From the NCBI GenBank assembly GCA_046563655.1, contig CM102284.1:2604001-2668000 (forward strand): DNA of 64,000 nt. The letters run 5' to 3'. The stretch's first letter is position 1; each line of letters opens with the position of its first letter. Origin of the DNA: Yuukianura sp. NJ FZ-2021 (lineage: Eukaryota). The notes below the pieces were generated by a model. That model ran no database searches and was not told the origin of the DNA. It saw only the letters and a list, made by a program, of their open reading frames with translations. The translations under genes and the position numbers were made by a program. Positions 5,473 through 51,790 of the stretch are shown in pieces.

Positions 5473-5899
5473 CCTCATTTGAAATTGAAAAGTTAATACT
5501 GTTTTTGTTTTAAAAATAATAAACAATTTGGGTAAATGTCTTTAACCTGCCATTGGCAGGTGCATGTTTTAATTTGTTTTGAATAAAAAAGTATAAAATT
5601 TAAAAAAAAATTTGGGTAAACAAAACTAGCACTTCAATTCAGTTCAATTTTGAAGTCAGACTCGAGTATGAAAAGTTTCTGACTCGAGTCTCGAGTCTGA
5701 AAAAAATGGACGAGTACTCGAGTTCGAGTCGATCTCTAGAATCGAGTTTGCCACCCCTAATGGCCGTGCTTTCGCTGAAATAGTTCTTGAATGTTTTACT
5801 ACAACAGTAAAAATTCCTGGATGTGGCTGGAAAAACGTCTAACTTAAGAATTTGGCTTATTATGCTAAAACTATAATGTGTGTTAGTGGCGTCGTTTAC

Positions 5900-7549
5900 C
5901 TGATGTGATTGGCGGCATGTGTACACAACTTCTGCCGCCCGCCAGACTCCATCTGTAGAGTCTCCGGTTTCCCACAGAACGACATCAGCTCCACGGTCGA
6001 ATTCACGATTCAAAGGATGCCCATCTACTGTGTACTCATTGACTTCATGAATTGGATGGAGCAGTACTCGAACTTTTTCTGGACTGAGGCCTTCCAACGC
6101 ATAACTTAAAATAAAAACAGAATTTGAAAGGTTTCAAAATTAAAAACACTGAAGCTAATTTCTCACTTGAAGGATAAGCAGAGTCCCTGCGCCGTAGAAG
6201 GACCGCGAACTGGCCCCTCGAAAACAGCACTCTGCGATATTCTTCCAGAAATGTTTGGAATTTGCGACGTTTCAAATATAATGTATCCACCTACAAATAT
6301 AATATTTTAAAGCAAATTGTGTTTACCTGCGCATTGTTTTAACTAGTTGTTTCAAATTACGAAACAAACTGGAATTGCAGAAATTGGTGCTACCTTCAGA
6401 CACGTCGTTGGCGTCTGTTGCTGGTCCTCCCACCCAATTCGAGTTGACCCCAAATGTGACCTCCCATTGTAATGAACTGAGGTTGCTACGCGACCATCCG
6501 CAAAGATTAGCCTCATCCGGTCCAGTTCCAAACGTACAGGCTTCTCCCCCTACAAGGCGGCCATAAGAGCGTATCCAGCCAACAATAACACCTGATTTAA
6601 GGAGTACGACATTCCCAGTTCCTCACACTTTCAGCGTCAAGCAACACAGAAAACAATTGCTCAAGCGCAAAACATGGTATCAAGTAAGCACGCATTCAAA
6701 GTCGTAAAGTAAGCAAGTTGGTTTGAAATAAAAAATGACGTTAAGTTAATTTTATACACAAATGAGTAATCTTGGCAGCAGAGAAAGTTAGCTTATTCAA
6801 ACAATTTCTGTTAGATATGTAAATAACAAAATCTTAGCTTACCCGGAAGCGCTTGCCTTCCTGTTCTGACCTGTAAAAAAGCAAAAAAGGAAGTTTGTTA
6901 AATTTTATTTTAGGATTATAGAACTCATATTATTATTTAAATTGCTTTATGAAATGACGAAGTTATTTCTGCTGCTTTCTTTTTCCCTGTACTTTAATCG
7001 ATAGAGCAAAATCTTGTACACAAACAACAGGATATAAACCAAAAAAAACGACTCGTGAAAGCAAACTTCGTTCAAAATTGCATGATAAGGGGAGAATAAA
7101 AGAAAAACGCAACATCGATTAGTTTTTCAAAGTAATTCTTCAAATAAAAAACAGAGAATAACCTTTACTAATATTGGGAATGTTAAGTTTTGCTTGAACG
7201 TACAAAAAAAAACTAGCTCCCAACAGTTACATACTGGTTCAATTCCAAAAGAGGTCAATGTCCTTAAATTTTAAAACAAAAATCGAAAAATATTCAAGGA
7301 ATTTGTGTCCTTTGTTAGTGGTCCAAGTATTACAAAGACAAAAAAAAACTGAATAATGTGTATAAATAAGTGTTTAAAAAGTTTAAGTTAAGTTAATTTC
7401 AAATATTAATTAAATTAAAGTGTTACCTTTGACGTTTTGTTGTTACTTTGTGGAACGGGTTGTGGCAGAGACATTGATTGTGTGATTAATGGTAGAACCG
7501 ACAAGATTGTAAAAACTACGCAACTTAATTTTATCTTTGATGATTTCAT
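5900..7549 (-). CDS. Secreted MAM-domain protein, 5' part (gene appears to continue beyond the satellite)
   Basis: Phase-consistent exons 7549-7427, 6870-6843, 6549-6394, 6290-6167, 6104-5900. They give MKSSKIKLSCVVFTILSVLPLITQS (signal peptide)...ACTFGTGPDEANLCGW...GPATDANDVSEGGYIIFETS...GLCLSFNYALEG...VVLWETGDSTDGVWRAAEV, a MAM pattern. The last exon ends at a GT donor with no stop. Confidence 0.85.
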
Positions 7550-7773: not shown

Positions 7774-7789
7774 TTCCTGGAAATACCCC
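7774..7789. promoter_or_regulatory. Overlapping STAT (GAS) and NF-kB-like site TTCCTGGAAATACCCC
   Basis: TTCCTGGAA matches TTCN3GAA. The reverse complement of GGAAATACCCC is GGGGTATTTCC (kB-like). It lies ~225 bp upstream of the MAM gene ATG, in the region shared with the divergent SMYD4-like gene. Confidence 0.45.
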
Positions 7790-10929: not shown

Positions 10930-13900
10930 TCAGGCTCCAAAATTTTGGAAAATTAAGCCGTTCGGCATGTAGATGTCTAGATCAAAGTCAGGACTGTTGC
11001 CACCGTCATCCGAGTTATCATACATCGAGATAAAGTCCATGAGGTCTAGAGAGTCGCTATAAATCATAAAACAACAGAAATCCACATTTCAAAAGTTTGT
11101 ATAAGGAGTATTTGTATATTACAGAGCTTCAAAATTCTTCATTAACTTCAGGTTTTGTTTCTATCACCCAGCTGACTTTTGAATGTATGAATGAATTATT
11201 AAACATTTAAGTACATAATTTTTACCTTTCGCTGGTAAAGTTTTGCTCAACATACGGCCCAAATGTATTATTATCTGGACTTGCGGGGTAGATGGGGGTA
11301 CCAGGTTGACTGTAGGGTACGTCTGATACACTGCATAGTAAGATGAACGCAAAAGTTATTAATACATTACAAATATAAAGCATCGATTGCATGTGGGCCG
11401 TACCCATTAAATCATGTTGTAATTATTACCCTTACCCTAGAATGGTTGTTCGCAGTCCTCTCCTTACGTATCCGTTTGAGTTTGGAGTCAGTGTCTCATC
11501 TGTTGACGTATAGTACTTTCCAAATGCACTGGATTTTGAAATATTTGGATACAAGCAGTGGAGGTGCGGAAGGTCAAAGATGCGATCCGCCAAAGATCGC
11601 ATGGCTAACTCTTTTCCACTAAATGGTGCCAAGCTCAGAATATTTTGATCTGAAATGCAAAAGTTTTACTCGAAGGTAAATATTTACAGTATTAATGTTT
11701 TTGCAAAAAAAAAAATACCCAAGTAAACTGAAAAGTCAGAATATTTTATTTGCATTACCAGTGTGAACCCAGGAAATGGTGATGCCGCCCAGTTCCGAAT
11801 CGCTAAAACGCAGTAGAAAAGTACCAGGAGCGCATGAGCTTAACAGTTCCATTGCCTTTTGCTTATCAACGAAGCCCATGATGGATCCATCAACCCACGA
11901 ATGAGACAAATGCTGTTTTGTTAACTAGTAGAAACAAAATAATGTTGAAAATAGGGTTAAAAGGTTAAAAGTTAACTTTTAGTTTTAAAAAGTGTTCTGT
12001 TAAACCTCTCATAAATTCCTACCTTCATAATAGCATAAAACCAATCCCAAAATGTAAAAGCCTTATCCCGAAGTGGCACTTTGCAAAACTGTGTCCAACT
12101 CAGTACTTGCTCGGACTCCGGAGTTCTGCATCATAAGAACCAACTGATGTAAGGTAGTTACATAAATTTGAGTCACTTTAAAAGTGAAAAAAAGAGCTTG
12201 GATTCTTTTTAACCTAGACAACTTTGCTGCTAAAAAGTGAATGTGGTCTTCCGTAAGGCCCCTGCCGGTGATTGCTTCGAATTTGGCATTCAGAGCATGG
12301 GCAAACTGGGACCAGGGCACTTCCATCGGAACGCTCAATCCCGGGTCTCCAAAGCTGTTTGCCCAAAACACCGGAGCCCACGCGTGTGGATCTTGCACTC
12401 CATGGACAATCACGACCACGGGAACAGACAAAGTCCAAAGTTTGAATTTCAGCTCACCAACCGCACATACACATTGGAAAAGCAAATAAAATTTTGCATC
12501 CGTGACCACTTCGCTTCCCTTCTTTTCCGCTCTTTGAATACGTTTTAGCTGCATATTCCTGAAAATGAAACTCAAATTTTTATAATTTCCGTTCGCAATG
12601 GAAAAGGTATTTGAATTTCTCACCTGAAAAACGCACTCAAATATCTGGTCTGGCTGTTATACTGCATCGTTCCACTGTTATTCAAAATTTCTCCGCTGGT
12701 CTCATTTGCCCGTTCTGGTTGCTCATTTTTGAGCAGTCGAATTGCTTGAACTTCGTTGATGATAGTGACTTTGACCTCGGGCGGAGTCATGCTTGAATGT
12801 GACAATTTTTTTTAATTACAGAATTACAAAGTTAAGGTGTGCGACTACCCTGGAAACTGGGGGTCAAAATGCGGCTGTAACTCATGAATTGAAAAATGGT
12901 CTGGATCAGTGTAGGAAGGTCGTACAATGACCCACAATATATCAAACTTTAGGAAAAGACTTGATCTAGTACCCTGTCGGAGCAAATTACAAAATTTTAG
13001 TTCTAACTGTGAAAAAAATTGACGCATACATTCCTCCTCCATATTTACATAGATAGAACTAAAATTTTGTAATTTGCTCCGACAGGGTACTAGATCAAGT
13101 CTTTTCCTAAAGTTTGATATATTGTGGGTCATTGTACAACCTTCCTACGCTGATCCAGACCATTTTTCAATTTCAATGTCGCGGTCTCAGAAAAGTTATT
13201 TTAAAACCCAGACGACGGCAACCGAACTTGTGTCAGTGGTTTGTTTGTTTGAAAGTGCATACTTTTTTTGATCATCTTTCCACTGATCCTTTTTCACCAC
13301 TCACTAAGGGTGTTTCTTTTTGTCGATGTCTGCATGTTTTACTAACTGCACAAGCTCCGTTATCGTGGTTACTAAATTTAACGATTATTGTTTATTAGAC
13401 GCATAACACACGTCCTTAAGATACATTTTGATTTAAAGTTAAATTAAAATTTAGCACGTACTTTAACCGTCCGCCCACTAGAAGCCGGACGGCAGATACA
13501 AATCGAGTGCCCTTTTTCATCACTTGGGGTGGCTGCTTTTCAACAATGAATGTTGAACTCAAAAGACGTGAGAACAACTGAGTTACCTAGAGGTTGTAGT
13601 AAACACAATCATGCATACATAAATGTAAAAAACTTTAAGGTCATAGATATGATAAGTATTTCCAAGCTCTGACCTGATGATTCAAAGTAGCAAGATCTGC
13701 GTCGCACGGATGAATTCGATCCCAAACCGAATTTGATTGTTGCAGACGTTCAATTTCCTTTAACTGATTCCGCGTGCTCCAAATAAGTTCAGCTAAATCC
13801 TCACAAAAAGACTGAAGTGTGTCCAAGCTATTTTGAAGTTGAGCGCTGTTTCGCGCGAGTTGATTTTCGCGCTTCCATTTTGCCAATTCGTCCAATACGT

Positions 13901-15213
13901 TGGACTGAGTTGCACTGAGATCCGTAGCGATGGTGCTAATTTTTTCAATAAATTCTGACCTCATCTGTGCCAAACTTTGCATTTTCTGGTTCAGCGATTC
14001 TAAGCGATCCTTTTGCTGTGAAGCGTTTTGCTCAAACATTTCTACTTGATTTGCAGGAATTGTTGCATTGTGCAATCGGTAAGCTCGAATTATACCTAGG
14101 GATAAAAAGTATCTATTTTATATTTTCTATTGCATTTTGCATTGTTTCAATTTTTTCAATTTTGAGAAACGAAAAGTTACTCAAACCTTCAAGTTTTTGA
14201 AACTCGTGACATTTTATGGCAAAATTTTCTTGTTCCTGTTCCAATTGCTGTAAAATATCTGCAGTCTCTAGCACTCTGGCGCGAATGTTGGTTAGCTTCG
14301 GAATAATTTCTGCTGTCACGTGGTCATGTTGTAACTGGAGGTCCCGAAAACTATGTTGTTCAACACAATTTATTTCAACAGCGAGGCATTCGCGAAGACA
14401 TCGGAACAATGAGGCAGGATCGTGTCCAAATTTTTCCTTAAAATACAATTCGGTTCACCAGAAGAGAAAATACAGAAAAACTTAAGGATTAAGTAAAAAT
14501 TTTCACTTTCGAGCTATGCTGATTTTTTTTTGAAAGTACTACTTTCATTGTATCTGCTACTTGGGATTCCAATGTTGTTGCGACTTTATTATTATTTTAA
14601 TAATAAATATTTAGTTCAACTAATTAATCTTACTTGTATTTTTGGCAGTGCTCCCAGAAGTTTGATTCTTAGAAGGTACGGGTCATCATTAGCCATTGTT
14701 TTGACTTTGAATTCAATTTGTTTATGAAGGTCATCGAGGAATTGGCGAATGAGCAGTTCATGGCTAGGATTATCCGGGTCAATAGCTGGATTTCTAAAAC
14801 ATAAACAACACTCTGCAAATCCTGTCTTCCTGTTGTGAATGTATGCTTAAAATACCAAACTGATGTGGAGAAAAATAATAGAATAATAAATATAATACAA
14901 AAATAATATTATATTCCTGAGGATCATTTCGACAGCGTAATGAGATTTTCTTAGTTTCGGTACAAAAAATATTTATCACCTTATTTAATTTCAGGTTAAG
15001 TTTTGGTTTCAAGTATATTTTGCGAAAAGAAGTAATTCATTCCACCTTTGTTTAAAAGCTTCAGTTGTCGTTTAGTTTGACTGACCTTACGCTCTCCTCA
15101 ATCCAAGGAGCCAAAACACCTCTGACCTCTATGGGAAAATGATCTCCATATAAATTATGAATTTTATGGATGTCCGCATGATTTAGGGTTTGCACTCTGT
15201 TCCAAATTGACAT
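10930..15213 (-). CDS. STAT: Signal transducer and activator of transcription (STAT5/STAT92E-like), 12 exons
   Basis: Exons 15213-15086, 14793-14634, 14436-14187, 14095-13674, 13586-13462, 12791-12624, 12558-12214, 12125-12023, 11924-11759, 11649-11436, 11330-11226, 11056-10930. Motifs: N-domain [26 protein letters not shown]-binding PVVVIVHG, linker [10 protein letters not shown]2 [20 protein letters not shown], phospho-Tyr GYVR. Confidence 0.95.
12887..13172. repeat. Long inverted repeat (119-bp arms, 48-nt spacer) in STAT intron 5; foldback/MITE-like
   Basis: Arm 12887-13005 is the reverse complement of arm 13054-13172 with 2 mismatches. Confidence 0.95.
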
Positions 15214-16704
15214 CTCGGAGAACACTTCTTTTCTCTAAAAATTACTAAGACTTTTGCATGTAAATCGTTTTTTTTCTTCACTTACTGACTTACAATGCAA
15301 TAAACTCGTTTGGATGATTCGTTTTTGACTTTATAGGTTTCTTTTAGTTTCACAAGGAATATCTCACAATTAACAGATAGCTTTTTATGCAGATTTATTT
15401 ACTTTCCTCGTTTAGCAACATCACTGAGGGAGTCCGAACTTGAACTTACTAATTTTGCACTCTATGAAACTATTTTATACAGTTGTGGTTTCTTTTTTTC
15501 TTCGTCTTTTTTTTTGCATGAGATCACTATTCTCTGGAAAAACAAACAAACTGGCGTCGGCATTTTCTTATGCTCATGACTGCACTCTACACCGCTGAAT
15601 CATACGAAATCTTTGAATAACATTCATTACATATAAAAAACTGTCACTCAATTGACAACGTAGCAGTGTAATAAATTATTGCATTTGCAAGGCCGGCAAA
15701 AGCTTTTGTTTTCATCTAATCTATATTATATTAGAACTAGAGAATAAATAGATTATATTAGAACTTTGTTTTTGTTTGTGTTTGGGCAAGGCTGTAGCGT
15801 AGCATGTCATACTTTATACTCGGAAACCGACAATTTCTAAATTCGCAAAACCTAAGACTAGGAAAAGCTTTACAATCGGTTTTAGGTTGGACTGTGCTTG
15901 ATTAGTTAAGTTATTAATTTCTTATTAAATTAAGAAAGCTTTGCGGCTACATTCTGTTTAAGTTGCGTTACAGAAAAGTTCCGGGTAGGTTAGTTTATAA
16001 TCCGTTTTAGGCACGTTTTCTAGGCTTGTGGAATGGTTGGTACTTGATTGTGGGCTATGAAATGGTACTACTCCCAGGGAATTAAAAGATTTAGAATGGA
16101 ATGAACATGCACATAAATTGCCGACCTCTGGACTGCAGAGAAGATGTATCGGGTTATGTTCTGCAGTGTTTTTGCAAATCTTGAGAGGCTTCAAACGAGG
16201 AGAGAGAATTCCTGGAACTGAACTGCGATGCAGATAAGCTGGATCGGCTTTATGTGGAAATGTGATTTTGCATATTATTTGCTTTGTAAACTAACGGCAG
16301 TTGCAATAATTTCACGGAATGCACTCAATCAAAGTTCATACCTTTAGACGCTACAAGGCGCAATAGTATTCGGGATCAAATTGCTGCGGTCTTATTTGGA
16401 AAATTAGCTATGCTTGAGATTAGGAAATTTTCAGGAATTAATTACTTAATTAATTAACAAGAACTATTAATAGTTGATAATTTAAAAAATTCCAGGAGTC
16501 AAATTGCAGTTTAACGTTTAAACTGAGTGAGCATTAATGAGAAACGCTGTAGTCAAGTATTCACTTAATTTGTTTCTTTAATTTACTTAATGCACGTTCC
16601 TGCATTGTGGAATGAAAACTTTCAATATATTTGTTAACACGGAAATGAGTAATGTGACATAATAAAGGCCAATTAATTTGTTAATAGCTTTAGATGGTTG
16701 CGAA

Positions 16705-20361: not shown

Positions 20362-21958
20362 TTCGTATGAGATTTTGAAAACCGTTGAAATGCTCAAACT
20401 TTTGAAATCAAATGAATCCTTGCTCGTGAGAGGAGTGAATTCAACGCAATTGAGCTAGTGCCTCTGCAGTCAACAATCCTTGAATTACTTAACTATTTCT
20501 GCAATTAAGTAGCCCTCTCAGGATGCTTAGATTATAATCGGTTTGGGCTTGCCTTCTTTTCAATGTCAAGAGAATATCAAAAAAAAAGAAGAAATAAGAA
20601 AGAGGTTGCCCTTGTCACTCATCCTTCCGTAAACTTTTCCCTAATTGTGCATTCTTTAGTGATTTCAAGTTTTTCCGCGAAACCGGTTTGTGGATTAGTA
20701 TTTGAAAGAAAGTTTCCAAAGAAACAAAAACAAAAGAATTCATCAGAATCACATGATTTCCAACAAATTTTCCTTCTAATGACAATAAAAAGCATTCTGC
20801 CAGTAATTACGTGTGATTTCACCAGTAAAGAATTCTGTTTTTGTTTGAACTTTGTCTCTTCATTCCTCGAAATCGTTTTCTTTTTTGTCATTGCACACAT
20901 ATGTATGTGAAAGATCACGAAAATCCTTTGTCATTGCTTCAGTCTTCAAAATTGAACGCATACCCAGCATGATGCACCAACAACATGATAACATGATAAA
21001 GTAGCGCAATTGTTAATAATGTTGAAAATATGTTTATTTGAAAACCTTCGTTATGTAATACGTATTCTTTTAGTTTCTGTTAATAGACTTTTTTTAGTGT
21101 GCAATATAATAGCAGCTCTACCTCAAGCGCCATTTGGTGAGCCTTGGGCTCTAACAAGTTTGTTAAAACTGGAGAATATGTTGGGCGAAGTTCAATTTTC
21201 ACAAGCAAAAATTAGTATGAAAATCAAGTTTTTGTTTCGTTAACTTGATGTCATGCGTAGATTTCACACGGCAATGACGAACGGTTAAAAAAATATTTTC
21301 CTAATTACCGCCTCGTGCAATTTATATGCAACCCGGAGCACCCGATTTAGCTATAAACTGGTTTTTAGTTAATTCGTTCTACAAAGTGCATCCGCTAAAG
21401 CTCTACAAGTTATATTTGCTTCTTATTTTAGGTAATTAGATTAACGATACGATGAAAATACTGTAGTTTAGGTTTTCAAAATGCATTTGAACATTATAAG
21501 TACAGTTTGTGTATGCGAGAACATTTTTAATTTTTATTTTAATCTTGTTGTTCATAGTTTTTTTTTTTTGCAGTTTTTTGTTTGTTTAATTTTTGTTCAA
21601 AAACTTGCAATTTTGTATTGGACATCAACTTCATATGAGCTTTTCCAGAAAAAAGATATTTCTACACCTGGGTGCTTTTTAGATTTCATCACACAAGATT
21701 GATGAAATTTCGCTGAAGAGGATAAAGATAAAATCACTTACAGCAATTCAATTAAAAGCAATATGTCAAGACATAATTAACATGTTTCTCGCAAAGGTTG
21801 CGAAAATTAGCCTGCCTTTTTTTCTTTTTTCACAGAAGTTTACTAGATTCCTACTTGTTACTAAATTAAGGTTTTTAATTAAAAAAAAGAATATATATAT
21901 TCCACGATCGAGGTCGTTTTCCTCAAGGAGTAAATCTTTTGAGCAGAAGTTGTACGAA

Positions 21959-23628
21959 ATGATTCGAAAGTTCAACCTAGTTTCATACTCTGTCATATTC
22001 AAGGCAGTATCATTACTGAATGTATTTCCGTGTAGTTGGTGCAATGCAACTCAAACGTTAAAAATTACAAAATCCAAACTGAAACTTGCATTGTGGCACA
22101 TAATATATATCTTGGAAATTTTTCATTTTACGTTTCTTACAGTTCGGATAATAGAGTCTATTCACAGACGTTACTCTCCATCTTTTCTTTTATTTCAATT
22201 TGTATGGAACGCTTTGTATTCGGTACCACTATTTTGTCAGGCAAACACAATTGCAAGGTAACCAGATGGTTTCAAAAATGTCGAGAAGAAATACATTTTA
22301 AAAATTTTCAAAAAACGAAAGGTTTTGGACAATTTTTAACGAGATACACGATACAAGTTTCGTGCTTAGATTATTAAACTATCTTTTTTCAGATATAATA
22401 CTCTTTGAAGTGTAAAATTTGAATCTGATTTTTAGACGGCAGGAATTTTCGAATTTGATAACATATTGGCTGAAAATGGAATCCTTGGAACCTGCGTTGC
22501 ATAAAAATTCGTTACATAAGTTCTTTGCTGTGTTTTTCCCAATTGGGCTTCTACATACAATCAACCAGGCCGTAGTTTATGTGAAAAGTCCAGAGTTGCC
22601 ACAATATTGGATGTCGCTGTACAGAGAATATATTTGTGAAGATGTCAACCCAGCAACCTATTTTGCCTTTACAGCGTTTGAAATAACTTTAACAACATGG
22701 AATTGGGCGCAAGTTTTTTTCTATTCTACAACACTACTTGGATGTTGTTCAACGATTCAAGAAAAAATTTCAGAAATAAGGTTTGGGTTAACACCTAAAT
22801 TTTACTATCTTCGCAAGGTTTGTTCACTTGATTTTCTTTAATAGGTTGCGTAATAACTAATGTTTTTTTTGTCGATGTTAAAAAAAGTTCATTTGTATTC
22901 CGCAACCATAACATTTTAAACGCATTTCAAAAATTTTACTTAAGAATTGGTATCCAAAGCTCTAATCTTTTGGAACGGGTATTTCTGGTGCTCCGTCCGT
23001 TTTTGTCTCTTGTTTTAATTTTTTGGCAAACAACAGGCATTACGCAACCTGTTAAAGAAAACAAAATGGGTGTCAAAGAACCTTTCTGTCTTGGTATTTA
23101 AATAATACATAGACGTTACCTGCTTGAATGTCGGAAATAGCGGTTCAATATGTACAACTGGTATTCATTTTTAGGAGTTCAAAGGACAATGAAAGAGCAA
23201 CAATGCTGTACTATAACCTCAATCGTTTTGGACTAGGTTTTGAGGAGTGTTACGTTTTGATCAGTTTGGGCATCAAAATTTGCGTGTTCAATTTGATTGT
23301 CGGCGGTACATACAATATGGTTACGTTTAGATTGCCATTACTTCAATTCTCTCTAATGATGTTGACAGTAGTTGCATGTTCATCTGTCTTTTACTACGTG
23401 TTGGTTCCACTTTGTAATTTGCACTACATGGCGCAAGAGTGTATCAAAAAAAGGAAGTACGAAGCAACTTCGCCGTGGCAAAGAAAATGTTGGACGTCAT
23501 TTAGACCCATGCGAATGACCGTCAGTTTCTACGTTCTGGAAAATAATAGCGTTCTTGTATACTTCAACTTCGTAGTCCTTCATGTTATCAACATTATTTT
23601 GTTGTTCCCAGCAGAGCCGAAGGTATAA
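21959..23628 (+). CDS. Multi-pass gustatory-receptor-like chemoreceptor
   Basis: Exons ~21959-22257, 22436-22780, 23175-23628. About 7 hydrophobic segments; GR-like C-terminus (FRPMRMTVSFYVLENNSVLVYFNFVVLHVINIILL). Start codon uncertain. Confidence 0.65.
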
Positions 23629-23996: not shown

Positions 23997-24716
23997 TTAT
24001 CGAACATTCATACTTGCTTCGTTATACGTCGTAGCAATTACAATGTCTCCAACTTTGTTCACAACTTTGAATTCCGTTCCTCCATACACTCCCCATTTTG
24101 GATCAACAGCATTCCCATCAAATGTGCGACAAACAAATCTTGTCTTTTTGTTATTACTAAAGGTAACCTGCTTCCCTTCAAACCAAAATTCCACAAAACC
24201 TATGTTAATGTTTTTCGAAACTTTAATTCTGAGAACAATGGAATACCAAACGCCGTTTTTAAATGGGCTTGTCCAAAGTGTTGACCTCCGCTTGCCTGGA
24301 TTGTACTGTTCCAGAACAAGTTGACCCCTTATAGTCTTAATCACAACAGGATAGTTCTGCTGGTCTGCTGGATAAGCTTTCCATTGGAAATTGGCATTTG
24401 TTGTACCCGTTTGCAAATCCTGATTCAGTTGCAGCTTCCAACCAATGTACAGGTCATCACCCTCTTTTGCTTGAAATCCCTTTGCTCCGTGACCTTCACA
24501 ACGCATAGCTCCTTTGGGCTTTGTAAATGCCCACACCTTCGTGTCAAGTTCAGAGTCTTCTATGGCTTCAATTTTGTTACCAGTTCCTTCGAAGTTCAAG
24601 TGCTTCCACACTGCTGAACTTCCGCGGTTGGCTGATCCGTCAAACAAAATTTTAGCAGAAGCCAGGTAATAGTTAAGCACAAAAAGTAGCATAACAGTGA
24701 CCGGTTGGTTGATCAT
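23997..24716 (-). CDS. Secreted polysaccharide-lyase-like (beta-jelly-roll) protein, bacterial type, intronless
   Basis: Single 239-aa ORF with a signal peptide. Motifs RCE, YIGW, NANFQWK, QNYPVV, GFVEFWFEG and DPKWGVYG match the RxE / Q / KxGxY pattern of jelly-roll lyases and recalled actinobacterial secreted proteins. Confidence 0.75.
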   Translation of the reverse strand: MINQPVTVMLLFVLNYYLASAKILFDGSANRGSSAVWKHLNFEGTGNKIEAIEDSELDTKVWAFTKPKGAMRCEGHGAKGFQAKEGDDLYIGWKLQLNQDLQTGTTNANFQWKAYPADQQNYPVVIKTIRGQLVLEQYNPGKRRSTLWTSPFKNGVWYSIVLRIKVSKNINIGFVEFWFEGKQVTFSNNKKTRFVCRTFDGNAVDPKWGVYGGTEFKVVNKVGDIVIATTYNEASMNVR

Positions 24717-41012: not shown

Positions 41013-42089
41013 GCTGGCTCGGTATCAGCCTTTACTAAAATTCGCTAAGTCCATGATTTCAAAACAACTTTTAAAAATGCAGGAATATGAAATGGGTTTA
41101 CTACTACCTGGGTACATAACCTTCTGTCTGTGAATTCATAAAACGGTGTAACCGCGCTACGGAGACAGTTGTCTAATCCTCAGAAATTCGATGCTTACAA
41201 AACCTTACCTTGGATTCTGAGGAGTAGTCACTTCAAGAAATACCGCAGTCTGAATTCGCGTATCGCGTTCCTCTTTCCTCATCAGAAAAAGCCAAAAGGT
41301 CTGGCTAAAGATTGGAAGTCGGATTTCTCGGATATTATATGTGCAGTTTCCTGCTTAAGTTTCAATAAGTTTCGACGCTTTTACCATAACCAAAAAGCAG
41401 GATCCTTTATCGTAGGCAAACTCGCTTTTTCTTACGTACGTTACGCTTAAAAAACTAACAATTTTGAAACAAAAACCAACGTTGTTAGGATATTTAATTG
41501 AATTGACAATGCTTAGATATTAATCTTTGCACCACATCTAATCTTACCCATCAACTAATGTAAGGTCTAATGTGTTTTACAATTGAACGGTCTATCGGAT
41601 ACGTTTTTCGCTGTATTTGGCTCATTTAAGACAAGCATAAATTAATAGGTTTTTTCGACTACTACTACTTGCTTTTTTACTACAGCGGGAGATTACGAAA
41701 ATTTTAGCCGCCCCTAGAACCATAAGCTGCCTAATTTCATTTCTAAAATTCCCAAGCTGTCTAATATCCAATATACCAATACCGCCCGTCAACAATCAAT
41801 AAAATCGAAACCCATTCCCAATAAAAAGGAGTATGCATAATGTTCCCATATATAATTCCACAGCCCAATTCTGGACGACGCGACGTCCCATGGCCCGACT
41901 TGGCTTTATGTGGACATATTCCAGAAAACAATGAATTATTTGTAAAAATTTATAACTTAGAATGCAAGGTTTAAATCCATATTTCAAGTTAAAAAATTGT
42001 CAATAGGTTAGCAAAACTTGACAAACAACAAATCCACTCTGAGCTGCTTTAAAAATTTTGGAATTTCCGACCAGCACCAACGCAAAACA

Positions 42090-43328
42090 ATGGATTCATC
42101 ATTAACCCGTAGTTTCACGATGGTAATCAACTGGGCAAGAATTTCTGGACAAGTCCCATTCAAGTTTGACGTTAAAACACACGAAATTATTTACTCTACA
42201 TCTGTTCAGTGGAAGATGATGTGTTGGATTCTCATACCGAACATACTATTTAGCACTGTACGGTTCATAACAACAATTGCGCGACAAACAATGATAATTT
42301 TTATTTGGCAATCCATTTACATTCTTTGTCTGGCACTTAACTACATGTACCACCTCATCTGTTTCATTCGTGGGAAGGATATAGTTCATCACTGTAACAT
42401 CATGTACGCGGCACTTAAGGACATTAACGGTAAGATATTAATTATGGAATAGTTTATGATAGTATTACTGTTACTATAAAATATTATGTAGTATATTAAT
42501 ATTATATATAAAATTTTAGAGTGTTGTAGTCACAACAAAGAACGGGATACCAAAACAGAAACGTGGCAGCAGCTCAGTAAACTGCTTACTGCGTCAGTCT
42601 GTATAACTGCCTTGGGCACATCGATAGCAGCTTCAATATTTACGTTGAACTATAAGGAGGGCATGGCGGTTCAATTAGGCTCACTTATCGTATCAGAGGC
42701 GCCGTTTCTAGCGGCGATTTTGCAGTTTCTGATTCCTTTCTGTTTATGGTCCAGCGTGGCGTTCATGGGTATCTTCTTCATAATTTACGTCTTCTGGCTG
42801 TTGTCAACTCTGGACAAGCTGCGCAATCTCGTACACTTGAGCGACACGCCTGTGCGTCTGATCTACGTCGTATCCATGTACAAGTCATTACAAATAACGG
42901 TTCTCCTATGTAACGACCTCACGCGTGACTATGCCCTCATTGTATCAACAAATGTATTCACCGGGGTAGCCACGGCGGGATTGACGTTGTATATTGGTTA
43001 CCATCATATTCTGGACTTTGTTACCTTCTATCCAATTTTTCTCTTCACGGTATTGTCCATAACCGTTTTGGTACTGATTTACTATACACTGGGCGACATT
43101 AACTACAAGGCGGCAAAATTGATAACAAAAATTCGCTATAAAATTTTGCGAATGCATCTGAGCAGAAGAGACAGAACTTTGCTGCAAATGTACAACCGAT
43201 CTCTGTTACCATTAAAAATTGAGCTCGGTTCTTTCGGCTACTACAAAAAGCAAAATAGTCTCAGAATCATTGCAAAGGTATTCTACTACTCCAACAAAAT
43301 GATTTTAATTACTAAAAAGGTATTCTAG
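42090..43328 (+). CDS. GR-like multi-pass chemoreceptor, paralog 1
   Basis: Exons 42090-42429 and 42520-43328. Multiple TM segments; C-terminus LPLKIELGSFGYYKKQNSLRIIAKVFYY. Confidence 0.75.
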
Positions 43329-43860
43329 TATATCTATAACAGTAATCAAATCATGTATAAGGAACCAGAGCTACGGAATATCTTTGAACAGGATAGAAAT
43401 GTGCAAGTTACTGTGTAGGGTGTAGGTAGTCATAAATAAATTGTAAACCAAAAACTTACGACAAATTTTGAGAAGTAATTATATTTTTACCTCCGCCAGC
43501 AAGTCAGTCTTAGTAAAATGTGAAAAATTGATTACATTTAATTTCCTCCTAGTTTTTCCAATTTCGATCGAAATTGGTTAAAATTAAAAAATTATAAAAG
43601 AAAACCGAAACTTTTTTTTAAATTATTAATATGATCAGACGCATTTTGTTCCAATATTCCAAGAAATTTTAATTCCAATGATTTAAAAAAAAAATTCGAA
43701 GGAACTGCTCGAGTTTAGTATTCTTTAATAACCCAAAAAATTCTGTGCCATGTGTAAGTCATCAGATGAATTAAGAAAAACTAGCTCATGTGAGTATCAA
43801 ACCTTTAGCTAATTGTTTTTGCATTGTTTCCTCTAAATTTCATATTGTAAGACAAAAGAG

Positions 43861-44179
43861 TTCCAGGAATAGAAACAGAAACTACACACAGAAATTTTGT
43901 TTGACTTGTGTACTGCCCCTAGGGCTTGCGTCAGACACTGCTTTACGTTTTACTTACGAATTTCTAATTCTTTATTCCTGGAAATATCCCGGAAAGAAAT
44001 TTGTCATACCAGCCCAAAATGAAATTTATTTATTAAAACACACGCACTGACATGCCACAGCTTGTTTCTTGTCAAAATTTTTTCATGCTGTCGCATACTG
44101 ATACATTCTATGACGTGATATGTGATATTCGACATTGCTCACAAAGTGTTCCCGGAACGGCCGAATTTTTGCTATAAAA
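43861..44179 (+). promoter_or_regulatory. Promoter with clustered STAT (GAS) sites, a kB-like site and a TATA box
   Basis: TTCCAGGAA 43861, TTCCTGGAA 43975, near-site ATCCCGGAA 43986, TTCCCGGAA 44149, GGAAATATCCC 43980-43990, TATAAAA 44173. Confidence 0.6.
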
Positions 44180-44288
44180 CACCGAAATGTTTTAGGTCAG
44201 CAACACAGAACAATATTTATTTGAAAGTATTTTCTGAAACACTAAGTAAGTTTTCCTTTCAAAAAAAAATCTTCAAACAATTTCTAAT

Positions 44289-44823
44289 ATGGCAAATACG
44301 AATAAGTTCATTTTAGTTGTCATCTTGGTCCTGTCCGTTTCGATAACAGTAACACACGGAGCGTCGTTTGAAGGTATTTGCCATATGACCTTAGTTGTAT
44401 CGACAGTGACAGAAATTTTAAATAATTGAATTGCATTTTCATTTTTAGTGATTCGAAACACAGGATGTCGTATATTCCGCAGTAGCACGGAGTTCAAACC
44501 AGGGTATTTATGCTTTTGTATTGTTACTGGGTTCCTTGAAACAGGATGGATGTGCGGGAAATTTGATACTGACACGATATTCAACCAAACAGCATTCAAC
44601 GCAACAAACGAATGTGAGCAACAGCAATTTCTAAAAAAACATTATTAGAATTTGCCAGTAGCTTCAAAAGCGTATTTTACTTTTAATGAATTCTTCTGAA
44701 ATTGTAGATATGCTTGATAAGGCATGTATGCATATTAGCATGTTTGCTTAAATTAAAATTTATTACTATCGTTTTTAATTTGCAGATCCTTTAGTTGGCA
44801 ACCAAGATGGTACTCCTTTGTAA
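44289..44823 (+). CDS. Small secreted cysteine-containing orphan protein (~95 aa)
   Basis: Phase-consistent exons 44289-44373, 44449-44613, 44786-44823 give MANTNKFILVVILVLSVSITVTHGASFEVIRNTGCRIFRSSTEFKPGYLCFCIVTGFLETGWMCGKFDTDTIFNQTAFNATNEYPLVGNQDGTPL*. TATA box upstream, AATAAA near 44857. The alternative is read-through to TAG at 44648. Confidence 0.7.
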
Positions 44824-45724
44824 CGCCCGGTCGAATAAGAATTGGAGTTTCATCAAAATAAAATAAAAAAAATGAATTTTTACAAATTTATTTAACAAAA
44901 TTAGCATACAGTGTTGTAAAACTCATTTTTGGAAACAATTGAATTACCTATGTATTTAAAATTCTATACAAAATTGTACATAAAATATGTACGGTTAGCA
45001 GTATACTAACTACAACAACAAATTTGTTGCTGGGTATTTTGTTGCTATTTTTTTTGAAAATCAATTTCAATTGAGTTTAAAACAAAAGATATGGCAAAAA
45101 AGTTCTTTAACTTGAATAAAGCAATTTTTATCGATTGCAGAAAGTTAATTTCAAAAATTGTCTTACATAAGTTATGGTTTGATTTTTAAAAACTTAATTT
45201 TGTTAGAAGATTGCTTGTTTTTTGGAGCAAATTTCCTTTTTTAGACAAATTATTTCCAATACAAACTCATTCCTGTGTTATTGATTACTAGTTAGTAAAT
45301 TGTTTTCTTTCTTATGCAACGCTATAAAAAAAAAGAGTTTTAATGACTCGGAGGTTGTTAAGCTGAAGTAAAGCAATATTTTTAAGTTCCTTGTTGTTGT
45401 TTTTCATTTTCACGATTTGTTCCAACAACAGTCTAATTCTCTAGTAATTGCTATCCTTAATCCTCGATTGATTTTAAAATTTTACATGAAAAGCTGGAAT
45501 AATTTTGAAGTTGCTGTCAAAGATCTAACAACTGAAACAACTTTTCTAGATGTTGAGTTGTAGAGGTGAAAAACAAAACTCTCAGAACATTACAATTGTT
45601 AATACCACTCGATATTCGAAAATCAGTTCAAATTTCCATTAGAAACAATTTATAAACAAACAAATTCAACGTCTTTAAAATTTTTGGAAAACTTTCTTCA
45701 GGCAGTTCATTGCAATTTGCAACT

Positions 45725-46939
45725 ATGGATACAACACTTGTTAAAATTATCAAAGTTGTTGCAGTCTGGGGACACGCTTCTGGTCAAATTCCAATCAAAT
45801 TCGACGACGCAAAAAATATAGAAATTTTTCACCCTTCTATCCAATGGTGGATCAGTTCCCGAATTTTTGTTCCTTTTCACATGCTATTTGTTTTGTACCG
45901 GTTCTTTTCAACTATCTCTAGTGAATCGCTGCATATCTTTATCATGCAGTCAATCTACTGCCTTTGTGTTGGAAACCACCTTGTGTACTACTCTATGTAC
46001 GCATTTACCGGAAATAAAATGTCCAACTACCGCAACAGAATGTTTGCCTCCCTCAAATACATTTCTGGTAAGCTTATTTTTAGTCATGCTTTTTAATAGT
46101 TGAAGGTGAAATTTTTAATTTGAGCAGAATGCTGTGAATCTTCAGCTAAAGCAAAAATTCCAAAGGATAATTGGCAAAACCTGACCAAATTCTGTATCAT
46201 GTCTGTTGGTGCCTCTGCTGTGATAACGTCTCTTGCAACTATTGTCATTCAAATCAGCCACAACGGAGGCCTGTCAGTACAATTAAGCTCAATTCTTGCA
46301 TCGAGGTCAATGACCTTGGCTTCAATCGTACAATTTCTGGTAGCGCTAAACCTATGGGCAATCGGAACCTATTTAGTTTGCTTCCTCGTCACTTTTATTT
46401 TGTGGACAATTTCCTGCCTCAGGACGATGATATACCTTGTACAACATGCTGGCAACAGCCCTGTACAACTCGTCTATGTTGTATCTTTGTACAAGAAGAT
46501 GAAGTTAACCGTCATGTTGGGTAACGAACTTACACGTGATTATGTACTAATGGCTTCTACGAATATGTTGACAGGAATGGCCACTGTTGGGTTAAGTCTG
46601 TACATTGGTTACCGCCATACGCTGCAATTTGATACACTTTTCGCAACGTCTGGAATCACAATTTTGTCCATTGGGTTAGTTCTATTGTCATACTATACAC
46701 TGGGTGACATCAACTACAAATCAAACAAGTTGATTGTGAAAATACGTTACAAAATTTTACGTATGGATATCAGCAGAAGAGACAGAACACTACTCCAAAT
46801 GTATAACAGATCTCTTTTGCCGCTAAAAATTGAGCTTAGCTCATTTGGCTTCTACAAAAAGCAAAACAGCCTCCGCATCATTGCGAAATTGTTCTACTAC
46901 TCAAACAAAATGGTTCTCATTACAAAAAAGGCATTTTAG
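45725..46939 (+). CDS. GR-like multi-pass chemoreceptor, paralog 2
   Basis: Exons 45725-46067 and 46128-46939. Same intron phase and C-terminal motif as paralog 1. Confidence 0.75.
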
Positions 46940-49985: not shown

Positions 49986-50576
49986 AAGTAAATTGATAGC
50001 TTGCATGTCCTTGCAAGCAAAAAAATGTGATCAAAGTATGGTGGAACAGAACATTAACTTTGTAACGTTTTTTATTTCAAAATCTTTTTACCAGTAATCT
50101 TATCAGGCTATTTCTACAATTCTACTTCTGAAATTCCACTTCTGACGTCCGTATGTTATAAATAATAATCTGTAGTACCTCGTGAATCTATTTCTAAAAC
50201 GGTTTAAAATTTGCAAAGTTCCAACATAAAACCCAAATTAGTTTAATGAGGTAAGGTAAACAAACGAAAGCGTGCGTAAACAAGAGACACACTTAACCCA
50301 TCTGCAATTTCAAATTTTGCGGAGAATTGTTCTAAAACTGGGTTTTCTGTTTGTTCTGATGAAAACGCAAACCAGGATGCAAATTTTCTCTAACTACATT
50401 TTCAACTTCAAGTTTTAAAAATTATGCCGCTAAGTTGAGTTTGAAGTATTTTTTTTCTTAATCTAAAGTCAATCGTAACGTTGTTTCATAGTTACCTCTC
50501 AGAAGGAAATTGGTGAAAACTAAACTTGAAAGGTTAAAGTTTACTCTATTTCACTGCCAGTTCAAATAGAGCTGTC

Positions 50577-51790
50577 ATGGATTCAACACTTGCCAAGATT
50601 TACAAAGTTGTTGCGGACTGGGGTTATTTTTGCGGTCAACTCCCAATCAAACTTGATCGTGAAAAAAATATTGAAATTTATCAGCCTTCTGTTCAATGGT
50701 GGATCAGTTCTCGCTTATTTGTTCCGTTTCACATGCTCTTTGTTCTGTATCGATTCATCTCAACAATTTCAGAGCAATCGCTGCACGTATTCATCTTGCA
50801 GTCAATCTACTGTCTCACTATGGGAAACCACTTTGTGTATTACACAATGTACGCATGCGCTGGTCGGAAAATTTCGACCTCCCGTAACAAGATGTTTGCA
50901 TCCCTGCAAAACATTTCAGGTCAGTTGAATTTTTTTGCCGTAGTTTTTTTTTTCTCTAAAAAACTGATGTTTTGCTTATTTGATCAGAAAGGTGCGAATA
51001 TTCCTCTGTATCAAGAATTCCAAGCGGTAATTGGCAAAAATACACCAAATTCTGCGTTTTCTCTGTCGGGGTTTCTGCTATAGTCACGTCACTTGCAACT
51101 GTCATCATTCAAATTAATTACAATGGACGAGTATCGGTTCAAATTGGATCAATTTTAGTTTCGAGATCAATGACCTTGGCTTCCGTTTTACAATTTCTGG
51201 TGGCCATTTCTTTCTGGTCAATCGGGACCTATCTGGCTTGCTTCTTAGTCACATTCTATTTGTGGACTATTTCCTGCCTCAAGAAGCTGACAATTATTGT
51301 ACAACATGCTGGCAGTAGCGGCAAACACCTAGCCAATGTTGTATCTCTGTACAAGTCGATGCAGTTGACGGTCCAACTGTGCAACGAATTTACACGTGAC
51401 TACGCTCTAGTTGCGTCGACAAATGCATTGACAGGAATCGCCACAGTTGGATTTGCATTGTACCTAGGTTATCATCGCACGCTTGAATTCGATACACTTT
51501 TAGCAACGTCTATCATCACTGCTTTGTCTGCTGAGCTATTGATTATGATATATTACACATTGGGTGAAATCAACTACAAGTCTACAAAACTCATTTCGAA
51601 GCTACGTTTGCGAACGAATCGGAACAATAGAGACAAGACGTTGCTCCAAATGTACAATAGATCTCTCTTGCCGCTAAAAATTGAGCTTAGCTCGTTTGGA
51701 TACTACAAAAAACAGAACAGTCTTAAAATTATTCCAAAGGTGTTCTACTACGCGAACAAACTGGTTCTCATTACCAAAAATGTATTTTAG
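50577..51790 (+). CDS. GR-like multi-pass chemoreceptor, paralog 3
   Basis: Exons 50577-50919 and 50988-51790. N-terminal half very similar to paralog 2. Confidence 0.75.

Follow-up and report, generated by a model that had tools for sequence, protein, structure and literature searches.

Does the short gene-like segment at 44289-44823 encode a small secreted protein, and do the sites that precede it place that protein under the control of STAT? We asked this within the window, by which we mean the whole 64-kb stretch of DNA that was analysed, a gene-dense, AT-rich, arthropod-like eukaryotic sequence with a GC content of 29-43%. The original prediction had put three exact TTCCNGGAA palindromes, a near-site, a TATA box and an ATG at 44289 in this region, and reading the sequence recovered every one of them in its place. 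With the further elements upstream, the putative control region contains, from distal to proximal:

43558-43577: 20-bp perfect palindrome CCAATTTCGATCGAAATTGG, containing a 4n STAT-type site, TTCGATCGAA (43563-43572), and marking the distal limit of the site-rich region
43657-43665: TTCCAAGAA, a 3n STAT-type site (TTCN3GAA) with one mismatch to TTCCNGGAA, from the pattern scan
43861-43869: TTCCAGGAA, an extended STAT palindrome without mismatch, ~334 bp before the putative transcription start, read from the sequence
43975-43983: TTCCTGGAA, an extended STAT palindrome without mismatch, ~220 bp before the putative start, read from the sequence
43986-43994: ATCCCGGAA, one mismatch from TTCCNGGAA and 2 bp past the site at 43975-43983, read from the sequence
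44149-44157: TTCCCGGAA, also a perfect STAT palindrome, with the TATA box 15 bp and the putative start ~46 bp downstream of it
44173-44179, plus strand: TATAAAA box, read from the sequence and found by the pattern scan
44197-44201, plus strand: TCAGC, initiator-like, read by eye and differing from the TCAGTY form that was scanned

Transcription would start at A 44199, which lies 26 bp beyond the first T of the TATA box. The copy of the palindrome closest to that box, TTCCCGGAA, is what we take to be the optimal fly STAT site. The plus strand of the 64-kb window has 43 copies of TATAAA (0.67 per kb). The 20-bp palindrome at 43558-43577, which could be a site for a dimeric factor, is one of six perfect palindromes of at least 16 bp in the window; the remaining five consist of A and T only, save for single terminal C/G pairs in two of them and the central GTTAAC of the one at 11966-11981.

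In flies, both TTCnnnGAA and TTCnnnnGAA are used by STAT92E, and STAT-regulated enhancers are marked by clusters of such sites (PMC2877871). Three exact copies of TTCCNGGAA lie inside 297 bp upstream of the candidate gene. A random model built from base composition gives one such site per 88.6 kb, and 100 dinucleotide-preserving shuffles gave a mean of 1.04 sites per window with a maximum of 3, so the rate of about one per 100 kb that had been estimated earlier holds under random models. The real 64-kb window contains 9 copies, a count reached in 0 of the 100 shuffles, and the 6 that fall outside the cluster correspond to ~1 per 10.6 kb. When 9 sites were placed at random, at least three fell within 300 bp in 1032 of 200,000 trials (~0.5%). 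The claim that three sites in 300 bp would be unlikely by chance therefore stands even at the empirical rate, and it also stands against a control set of 96 composition-matched 4-N-4 palindromes, among which TTCCNGGAA was the most frequent (9 copies, with 3 for the runner-up) and the only one to have two or more copies in 300 bp.

The looser TTCN3GAA pattern showed no enrichment over the window as a whole, with 34 copies observed against 31.4 expected and 36 of 100 shuffles reaching 34. Locally, the ~600 bp from 43563 to 44157 hold six TTCN3-4GAA sites, the top local density of the window; the next-densest interval starts at 43657 within the same cluster and is followed by satellite intervals at the start of the window. 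Clustering of STAT-type palindromes directly upstream of the TATA box thus exceeds chance. No second copy of 43331-45650 and no paralogue of either exon was found in the 64-kb window, no transposon-like terminal repeats flank the locus, where only short AT-rich repeats were found, and no Rfam family matched 43300-45700 at E <= 1.

TTCCWGGAA is also about six times more frequent in the window than in random models. Outside the cluster there are six copies where ~1 would be expected. Each of the six is TTCCTGGAA, and no fewer than three of them (36580, 55628 and 56149) fall in long open frames with Pfam-confirmed domains nearby. Because of this excess, and because copies occur inside the open frames of other genes, the motif by itself is no proof of STAT control.

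We then considered the gene that the cluster would serve. Its proposed parts, all on the plus strand, are:

44289-44373, plus strand: exon 1, with the ATG and a signal-peptide-like segment, ending in phase 1 before GTATTT; GC 41.2%
44449-44613, plus strand: exon 2, 165 nt with both ends in phase 1, acceptor TTTTTAG and donor GTGAGC; GC 41.2%
44786-44823, plus strand: exon 3, with the final 12 codons and TAA, acceptor TTTGCAG; GC 39.5%
44857-44862, plus strand: AATAAA polyadenylation-type signal, starting 34 nt past the stop codon

Joined, the three exons form an open frame of 95 aa with GT/AG borders and pyrimidine tracts. The spliced frame described earlier, three exons for about 95 aa with four Cys and two sequons, is present at these positions. 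An alternative two-exon reading continues exon 2 through to a TAG at 44646-44648 and gives 94 aa with a fifth Cys. Base composition follows the proposed structure, at 41.2, 28.0, 41.2, 27.3 and 39.5% GC for exon, intron, exon, intron and exon in turn; for comparison, verified neighbouring exons lie at 37-44% and the flanks at 27-32%, and none of 147 flanking 165-bp windows reached the GC of exon 2. The order of elements, with TATAAAA, TCAGC, an ATG ~90 nt later, the stop and AATAAA, has the spacing expected for a gene, on a background of 1.06 AATAAA per kb on the plus strand of the window.

These features have to be weighed against the possibility that there is no functional unit here at all, only a chance motif cluster beside a chance open reading, with GT/AG pairs picked to keep the frame in AT-rich DNA. 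Codon usage offers this reading some room. A log-odds measure of codon usage, with 19 long exons of the window as its training set, cannot separate the model from non-genes: it gives 0.069 bits per codon for the model, 0.058-0.166 for real exons and 0.077 for a nearby upstream ORF of 91 aa that is probably non-coding. The same 2.3 kb that holds this 91-aa frame on the plus strand also holds an antisense stop-free frame of 122 aa (44273-44641, minus strand). The latter spans exon 1, intron 1 and exon 2, has its first Met near its end and a codon score of 0.027, and probably owes its openness to the coding region on the sense strand. Exon 2 has no homologue in our searches and its AlphaFold2 score equals that of the antisense control (both below), and a cluster chance of ~0.5% per window permits some chance clusters genome-wide. 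Set against this, GC rises and falls exactly at the proposed splice borders, the TATA box, ATG, stop and AATAAA stand in the expected order and at the expected spacing, and a signal-peptide-like start is rare in random sequence. We regard the absence of any functional unit as unlikely, though not negligible, and the candidate gene itself as likely to be real.

The predicted N-terminus fits entry into the secretory pathway, as had been proposed: a Lys at residue 6 is followed by 15 uncharged hydrophobic residues and by T-H-G before the likely cleavage point. A simple rule of our own, drawn up after viewing the sequence, picks out 7 signal-peptide-like ATG starts in the real window, the candidate among them, where 20 random sequences of 64 kb averaged 0.35; of the six besides the candidate, three or more appear to run antisense to known genes. 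Exon 2 encodes all four Cys, at residues 35, 50, 52 and 64 (C-x14-C-x-C-x11-C), as well as both N-glycosylation sequons, NQT (74) and NAT (79).

Family assignment was attempted from several directions. With E values up to 10 allowed, Pfam matched no family to exon 2, to the antisense 122-aa frame or to the upstream 91-aa frame. Exon 1 resembled the Pfam profile Nodulin_late at 15.7 bits against a cutoff of 30.4, which we took as signal-peptide likeness only. A word-index protein search with the exon-2 frame returned no candidate. An exhaustive phmmer search over 1.84 billion representatives gave two matches, P0001 (E 4.6e-9) and P0002 (E 6.7e-5), both long proteins with four fn3 repeats each, P0001 being bacterial-type. 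Exon 2 aligned to each of the four P0001 repeats over ~40 residues at 42-45% identity (14-17 matches over 33-40 columns), and each repeat contributed ~29 bits; by our own arithmetic, 29.6 bits against 2.36x10^11 residues corresponds to an E of order 10^4, and the listed E-values are low because near-identical fn3 repeats were summed. We therefore ascribe the fn3 relationship to chance: the alignment covers under half of a domain of ~84 positions, three of the candidate's four Cys have no partner in it, and exon 2 gets no match from the Pfam fn3 profile.

The original prediction had seen in the Cys spacing a loose likeness to Fn1 or VWC half-modules, and this did not survive. VWC modules have 8-10 Cys, and the candidate has just four; no Pfam family came up with E allowed to reach 10, the lowest E among PDB sequences was 0.42, and Foldseek against the PDB gave 0 matches at E <= 0.001, its best fibronectin F1 match having E 5.8 and probability 0.06. 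An Fn1 or VWC identity is not supported by this profile, structure and Cys-count evidence. In the ESM Atlas feature search the top score was 0.86 (recognition 1184), which is under the meaningful level. AlphaFold2, run on exon 2 as a single sequence, produced three strands and a helix at pLDDT 65.5 and pTM 0.43, compared with 66.6 and 0.30 for the antisense control, and because the model is no better than that control it carries no weight either way.

How much the missing matches mean can be gauged from the neighbours. The conserved TPR-SET neighbour has a best match 43% identical, and its best match with a named source, from Folsomia candida, is 34% identical. The word-index search returned no homologue for an exon of a flanking membrane-protein gene, and the exact sequence of the neighbouring single-exon lyase was not found in a collection of 15 billion proteins. 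The collections are without this organism and its near relatives, and missing matches therefore say nothing about the gene being new; its proposed orphan status is unproven.

The regulatory reading had a second component, control by NF-kB alongside JAK/STAT, which was tied to a kB-like string overlapping the site at 43975. The string is present (GGAAATATCCC, 43980-43990) and forms the junction between the TTCCTGGAA site and the adjoining one-mismatch STAT-like site; on the opposite strand it reads GGG-ATATTT-CC. In GGGATATTTCC, 6 bases separate GGG from CC, one beyond the widest consensus form. We scanned 43331-44288 with five kB/Dorsal forms (GGGRNNYYCC, GGGGATTYYT, GGGAAANYCC, GGGWWWWCCM and GGGWDWWWCCM) and obtained 0 exact matches. 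The string comes within one mismatch solely of the loosest form, GGGRNNYYCC, and the window contains 85 such matches. An NF-kB-responsive promoter is accordingly not supported, since the string is the junction of adjacent STAT-like sites and fails all five consensus forms: its position was correct, but its kB identity is unsupported. No GATA site was found in 43331-44288 either, and of the proposed dual control the STAT-type cluster is left standing and the NF-kB input is not.

Insect immune promoters usually carry kB or GATA companion sites. Their absence from 43331-44288 favours a reading in which the gene is real and the palindromes are unused by STAT, or are not what drives it. In that case the product would be a tissue-specific small secreted protein of an ordinary sort, for instance of the gut, the salivary or reproductive glands or the cuticle, and the GGAA cores would be bound by an ETS-type protein or by nothing. 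The evidence for the gene model is independent of the sites and is as good under this reading, and the general excess of TTCCWGGAA in the window, with six copies outside the cluster against ~1 expected, also speaks for it. It has to accommodate, however, three exact palindromes within 300 bp, a grouping unique among the 96 matched patterns, and the mere 15 bp that separate the TATA box from TTCCCGGAA, which we take as the optimal site for fly STAT. We judge a real gene without STAT control to be improbable but worth keeping in view.

A further question is whether the cluster serves the small gene or another one. The genes of the window that bear on this are:

12063-14451, minus strand: STAT gene, with Pfam STAT_int, STAT_alpha (4.7e-24), STAT_bind (2.1e-18) and STAT_linker on successive exons
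21683-23628, plus strand: two-exon membrane-protein gene of a tandem family, multi-pass, with 4 TM-like segments in the second exon
42012-43328, plus strand: tandem two-exon membrane-protein gene of the same build
45656-46939, plus strand: tandem two-exon membrane-protein gene of the same build
50538-51790, plus strand: tandem two-exon membrane-protein gene of the same build

The STAT gene lies ~30 kb from the site cluster, and its presence in the window, with a DNA-binding domain that can be recognised, means that the factor is present in the organism. The tandem membrane-protein family has no Pfam family, and its closest look-alikes in the ESM Atlas are arthropod hypothetical proteins (score 0.97). 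The candidate gene sits between the copies at 42012-43328 and 45656-46939, and the cluster, 0.5-0.8 kb downstream of the one and 1.5-1.8 kb upstream of the next, might be a STAT-responsive enhancer for a flanking membrane-protein gene or for a gene farther away, with the small gene a bystander or no gene. Fly STAT enhancers were found as far as 60 kb from their promoters, even past another predicted gene (PMC2877871); as they can act across tens of kb, the target is not necessarily the nearest gene. The nearest site, though, has a TATA box 15 bp away that points toward the small gene, and the paralogues at 21683-23628 and 50538-51790 are without TTCCNGGAA nearby. We consider an enhancer for another gene rather unlikely. 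In the same study, fly enhancers with non-conserved STAT sites alone were independent of JAK/STAT (PMC2877871).

The explanation that we prefer is a STAT-responsive gene for a small secreted glycoprotein, similar in function to TotA and vir-1 but not homologous to them. We hold it tentatively: the full chain, from STAT binding to released product, has in our view something short of an even chance. Cytokine-activated STAT dimers would bind the three high-affinity TTCCNGGAA palindromes ~46, 220 and 334 bp upstream of 44199 and would thereby turn on a compact TATA promoter, with weaker TTCN3-4GAA sites further upstream. An mRNA of ~0.45 kb from the three-exon gene would encode a 95-aa precursor that would enter the secretory pathway and be cleaved after about residue 24, releasing a protein of ~71 aa with two predicted disulfides and two predicted N-glycans. 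The product would be silent at rest and made after cytokine signalling from injury, infection or stress. The window itself shows the motifs and their clustering, the open spliced frame, its GC pattern and the STAT gene; from these we infer transcription, splicing, secretion, STAT binding, inducibility and the immune role. The STAT inference is reasonable, and the immune-effector role is unproven.

A variant of the preferred explanation would make the product a signal in its own right: a small, lineage-restricted, glycosylated, cytokine-like JAK/STAT ligand or feedback factor, equivalent in function to Unpaired or Vago, whose own promoter would place it under STAT induction. We know of no Unpaired- or Vago-like ligand in this arthropod group, and we think the variant very unlikely.

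The standard way to monitor JAK/STAT activity in flies is through Turandot and vir-1, and Pfam includes a Turandot family. With the candidate, no named family of STAT-induced peptides, Turandot included, was recovered in Pfam or as a phmmer match among the 1.84 billion representatives. TotA and vir-1 are induced genes that depend on JAK/STAT; TotA protein is found in the hemolymph, and the vir-1 promoter has STAT sites (PMC3772119). The logic proposed for the candidate is that of Turandot A of Drosophila, a small secreted hemolymph protein whose induction by septic injury needs JAK/STAT (PMC3772119), but no sequence relationship between the two was found, as exon 2 matched no Pfam family even at E up to 10, and the candidate carries four Cys and two sequons. 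With vir-1, which is likewise induced, has STAT sites in its promoter and requires hop and Dome (PMC3772119), the candidate shows no detected sequence similarity, and nothing ties its locus to viruses. The STAT92E enhancers of vvl, trh, crb and dome contain clusters of TTCnnnGAA and TTCnnnnGAA (PMC2877871), of which the candidate region has six, three of them extended and perfect. Those enhancers are developmental, often distant from their promoters, and validated by conservation and mutagenesis, whereas the candidate cluster is proximal to its promoter. The likeness to fn3 repeats is of a different order, with ~40 exon-2 residues at 42-45% identity to the repeats of P0001, offset by scores of ~29 bits each and by the mismatch at most of the Cys.

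The locus is thus best described as a sequence-level candidate of a familiar kind. Should transcription and STAT dependence hold, it would provide a natural STAT-responsive promoter that is compact (~350 bp), combines a TATA box with three optimal sites and could be used as a pathway reporter. If the preferred explanation is true, the product would be a new, apparently lineage-restricted humoral factor in a non-model arthropod, and would join the known class of STAT-induced small humoral proteins without being a new type of system. Such factors are poorly known outside Diptera. A literature search on Collembola combining JAK STAT, immune and genome found no papers.

Several other features of the window were recorded along the way. 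Its further genes, by Pfam, are C2H2 zinc-finger genes, an ionotropic-receptor-type gene, a rhodopsin-type GPCR and an epimerase/dehydratase gene. Positions 1 to ~5400, where GC is lower than anywhere else in the window (29%), form a satellite-like tandem array with a 15-bp word repeated at intervals of 131, 262 and 393 bp. A second signal-peptide-like start, an ATG at 7549 on the minus strand, has a perfect TTCCTGGAA at 7774-7782, 225 bp upstream; the later exons of the gene that starts there (5639-6622) have no Pfam family. On the upstream side of the STAT gene, TTCCTGGAA occurs at 16209 and TTCACGGAA at 16311. Finally, a single-exon ORF of 239 aa at 24000-24716 on the minus strand has a hydrophobic N-terminus and matches Pfam Polysacc_lyase (PF14099, 5.1e-15); such a domain is unusual for an animal genome, and the gene may have been acquired from microbes.
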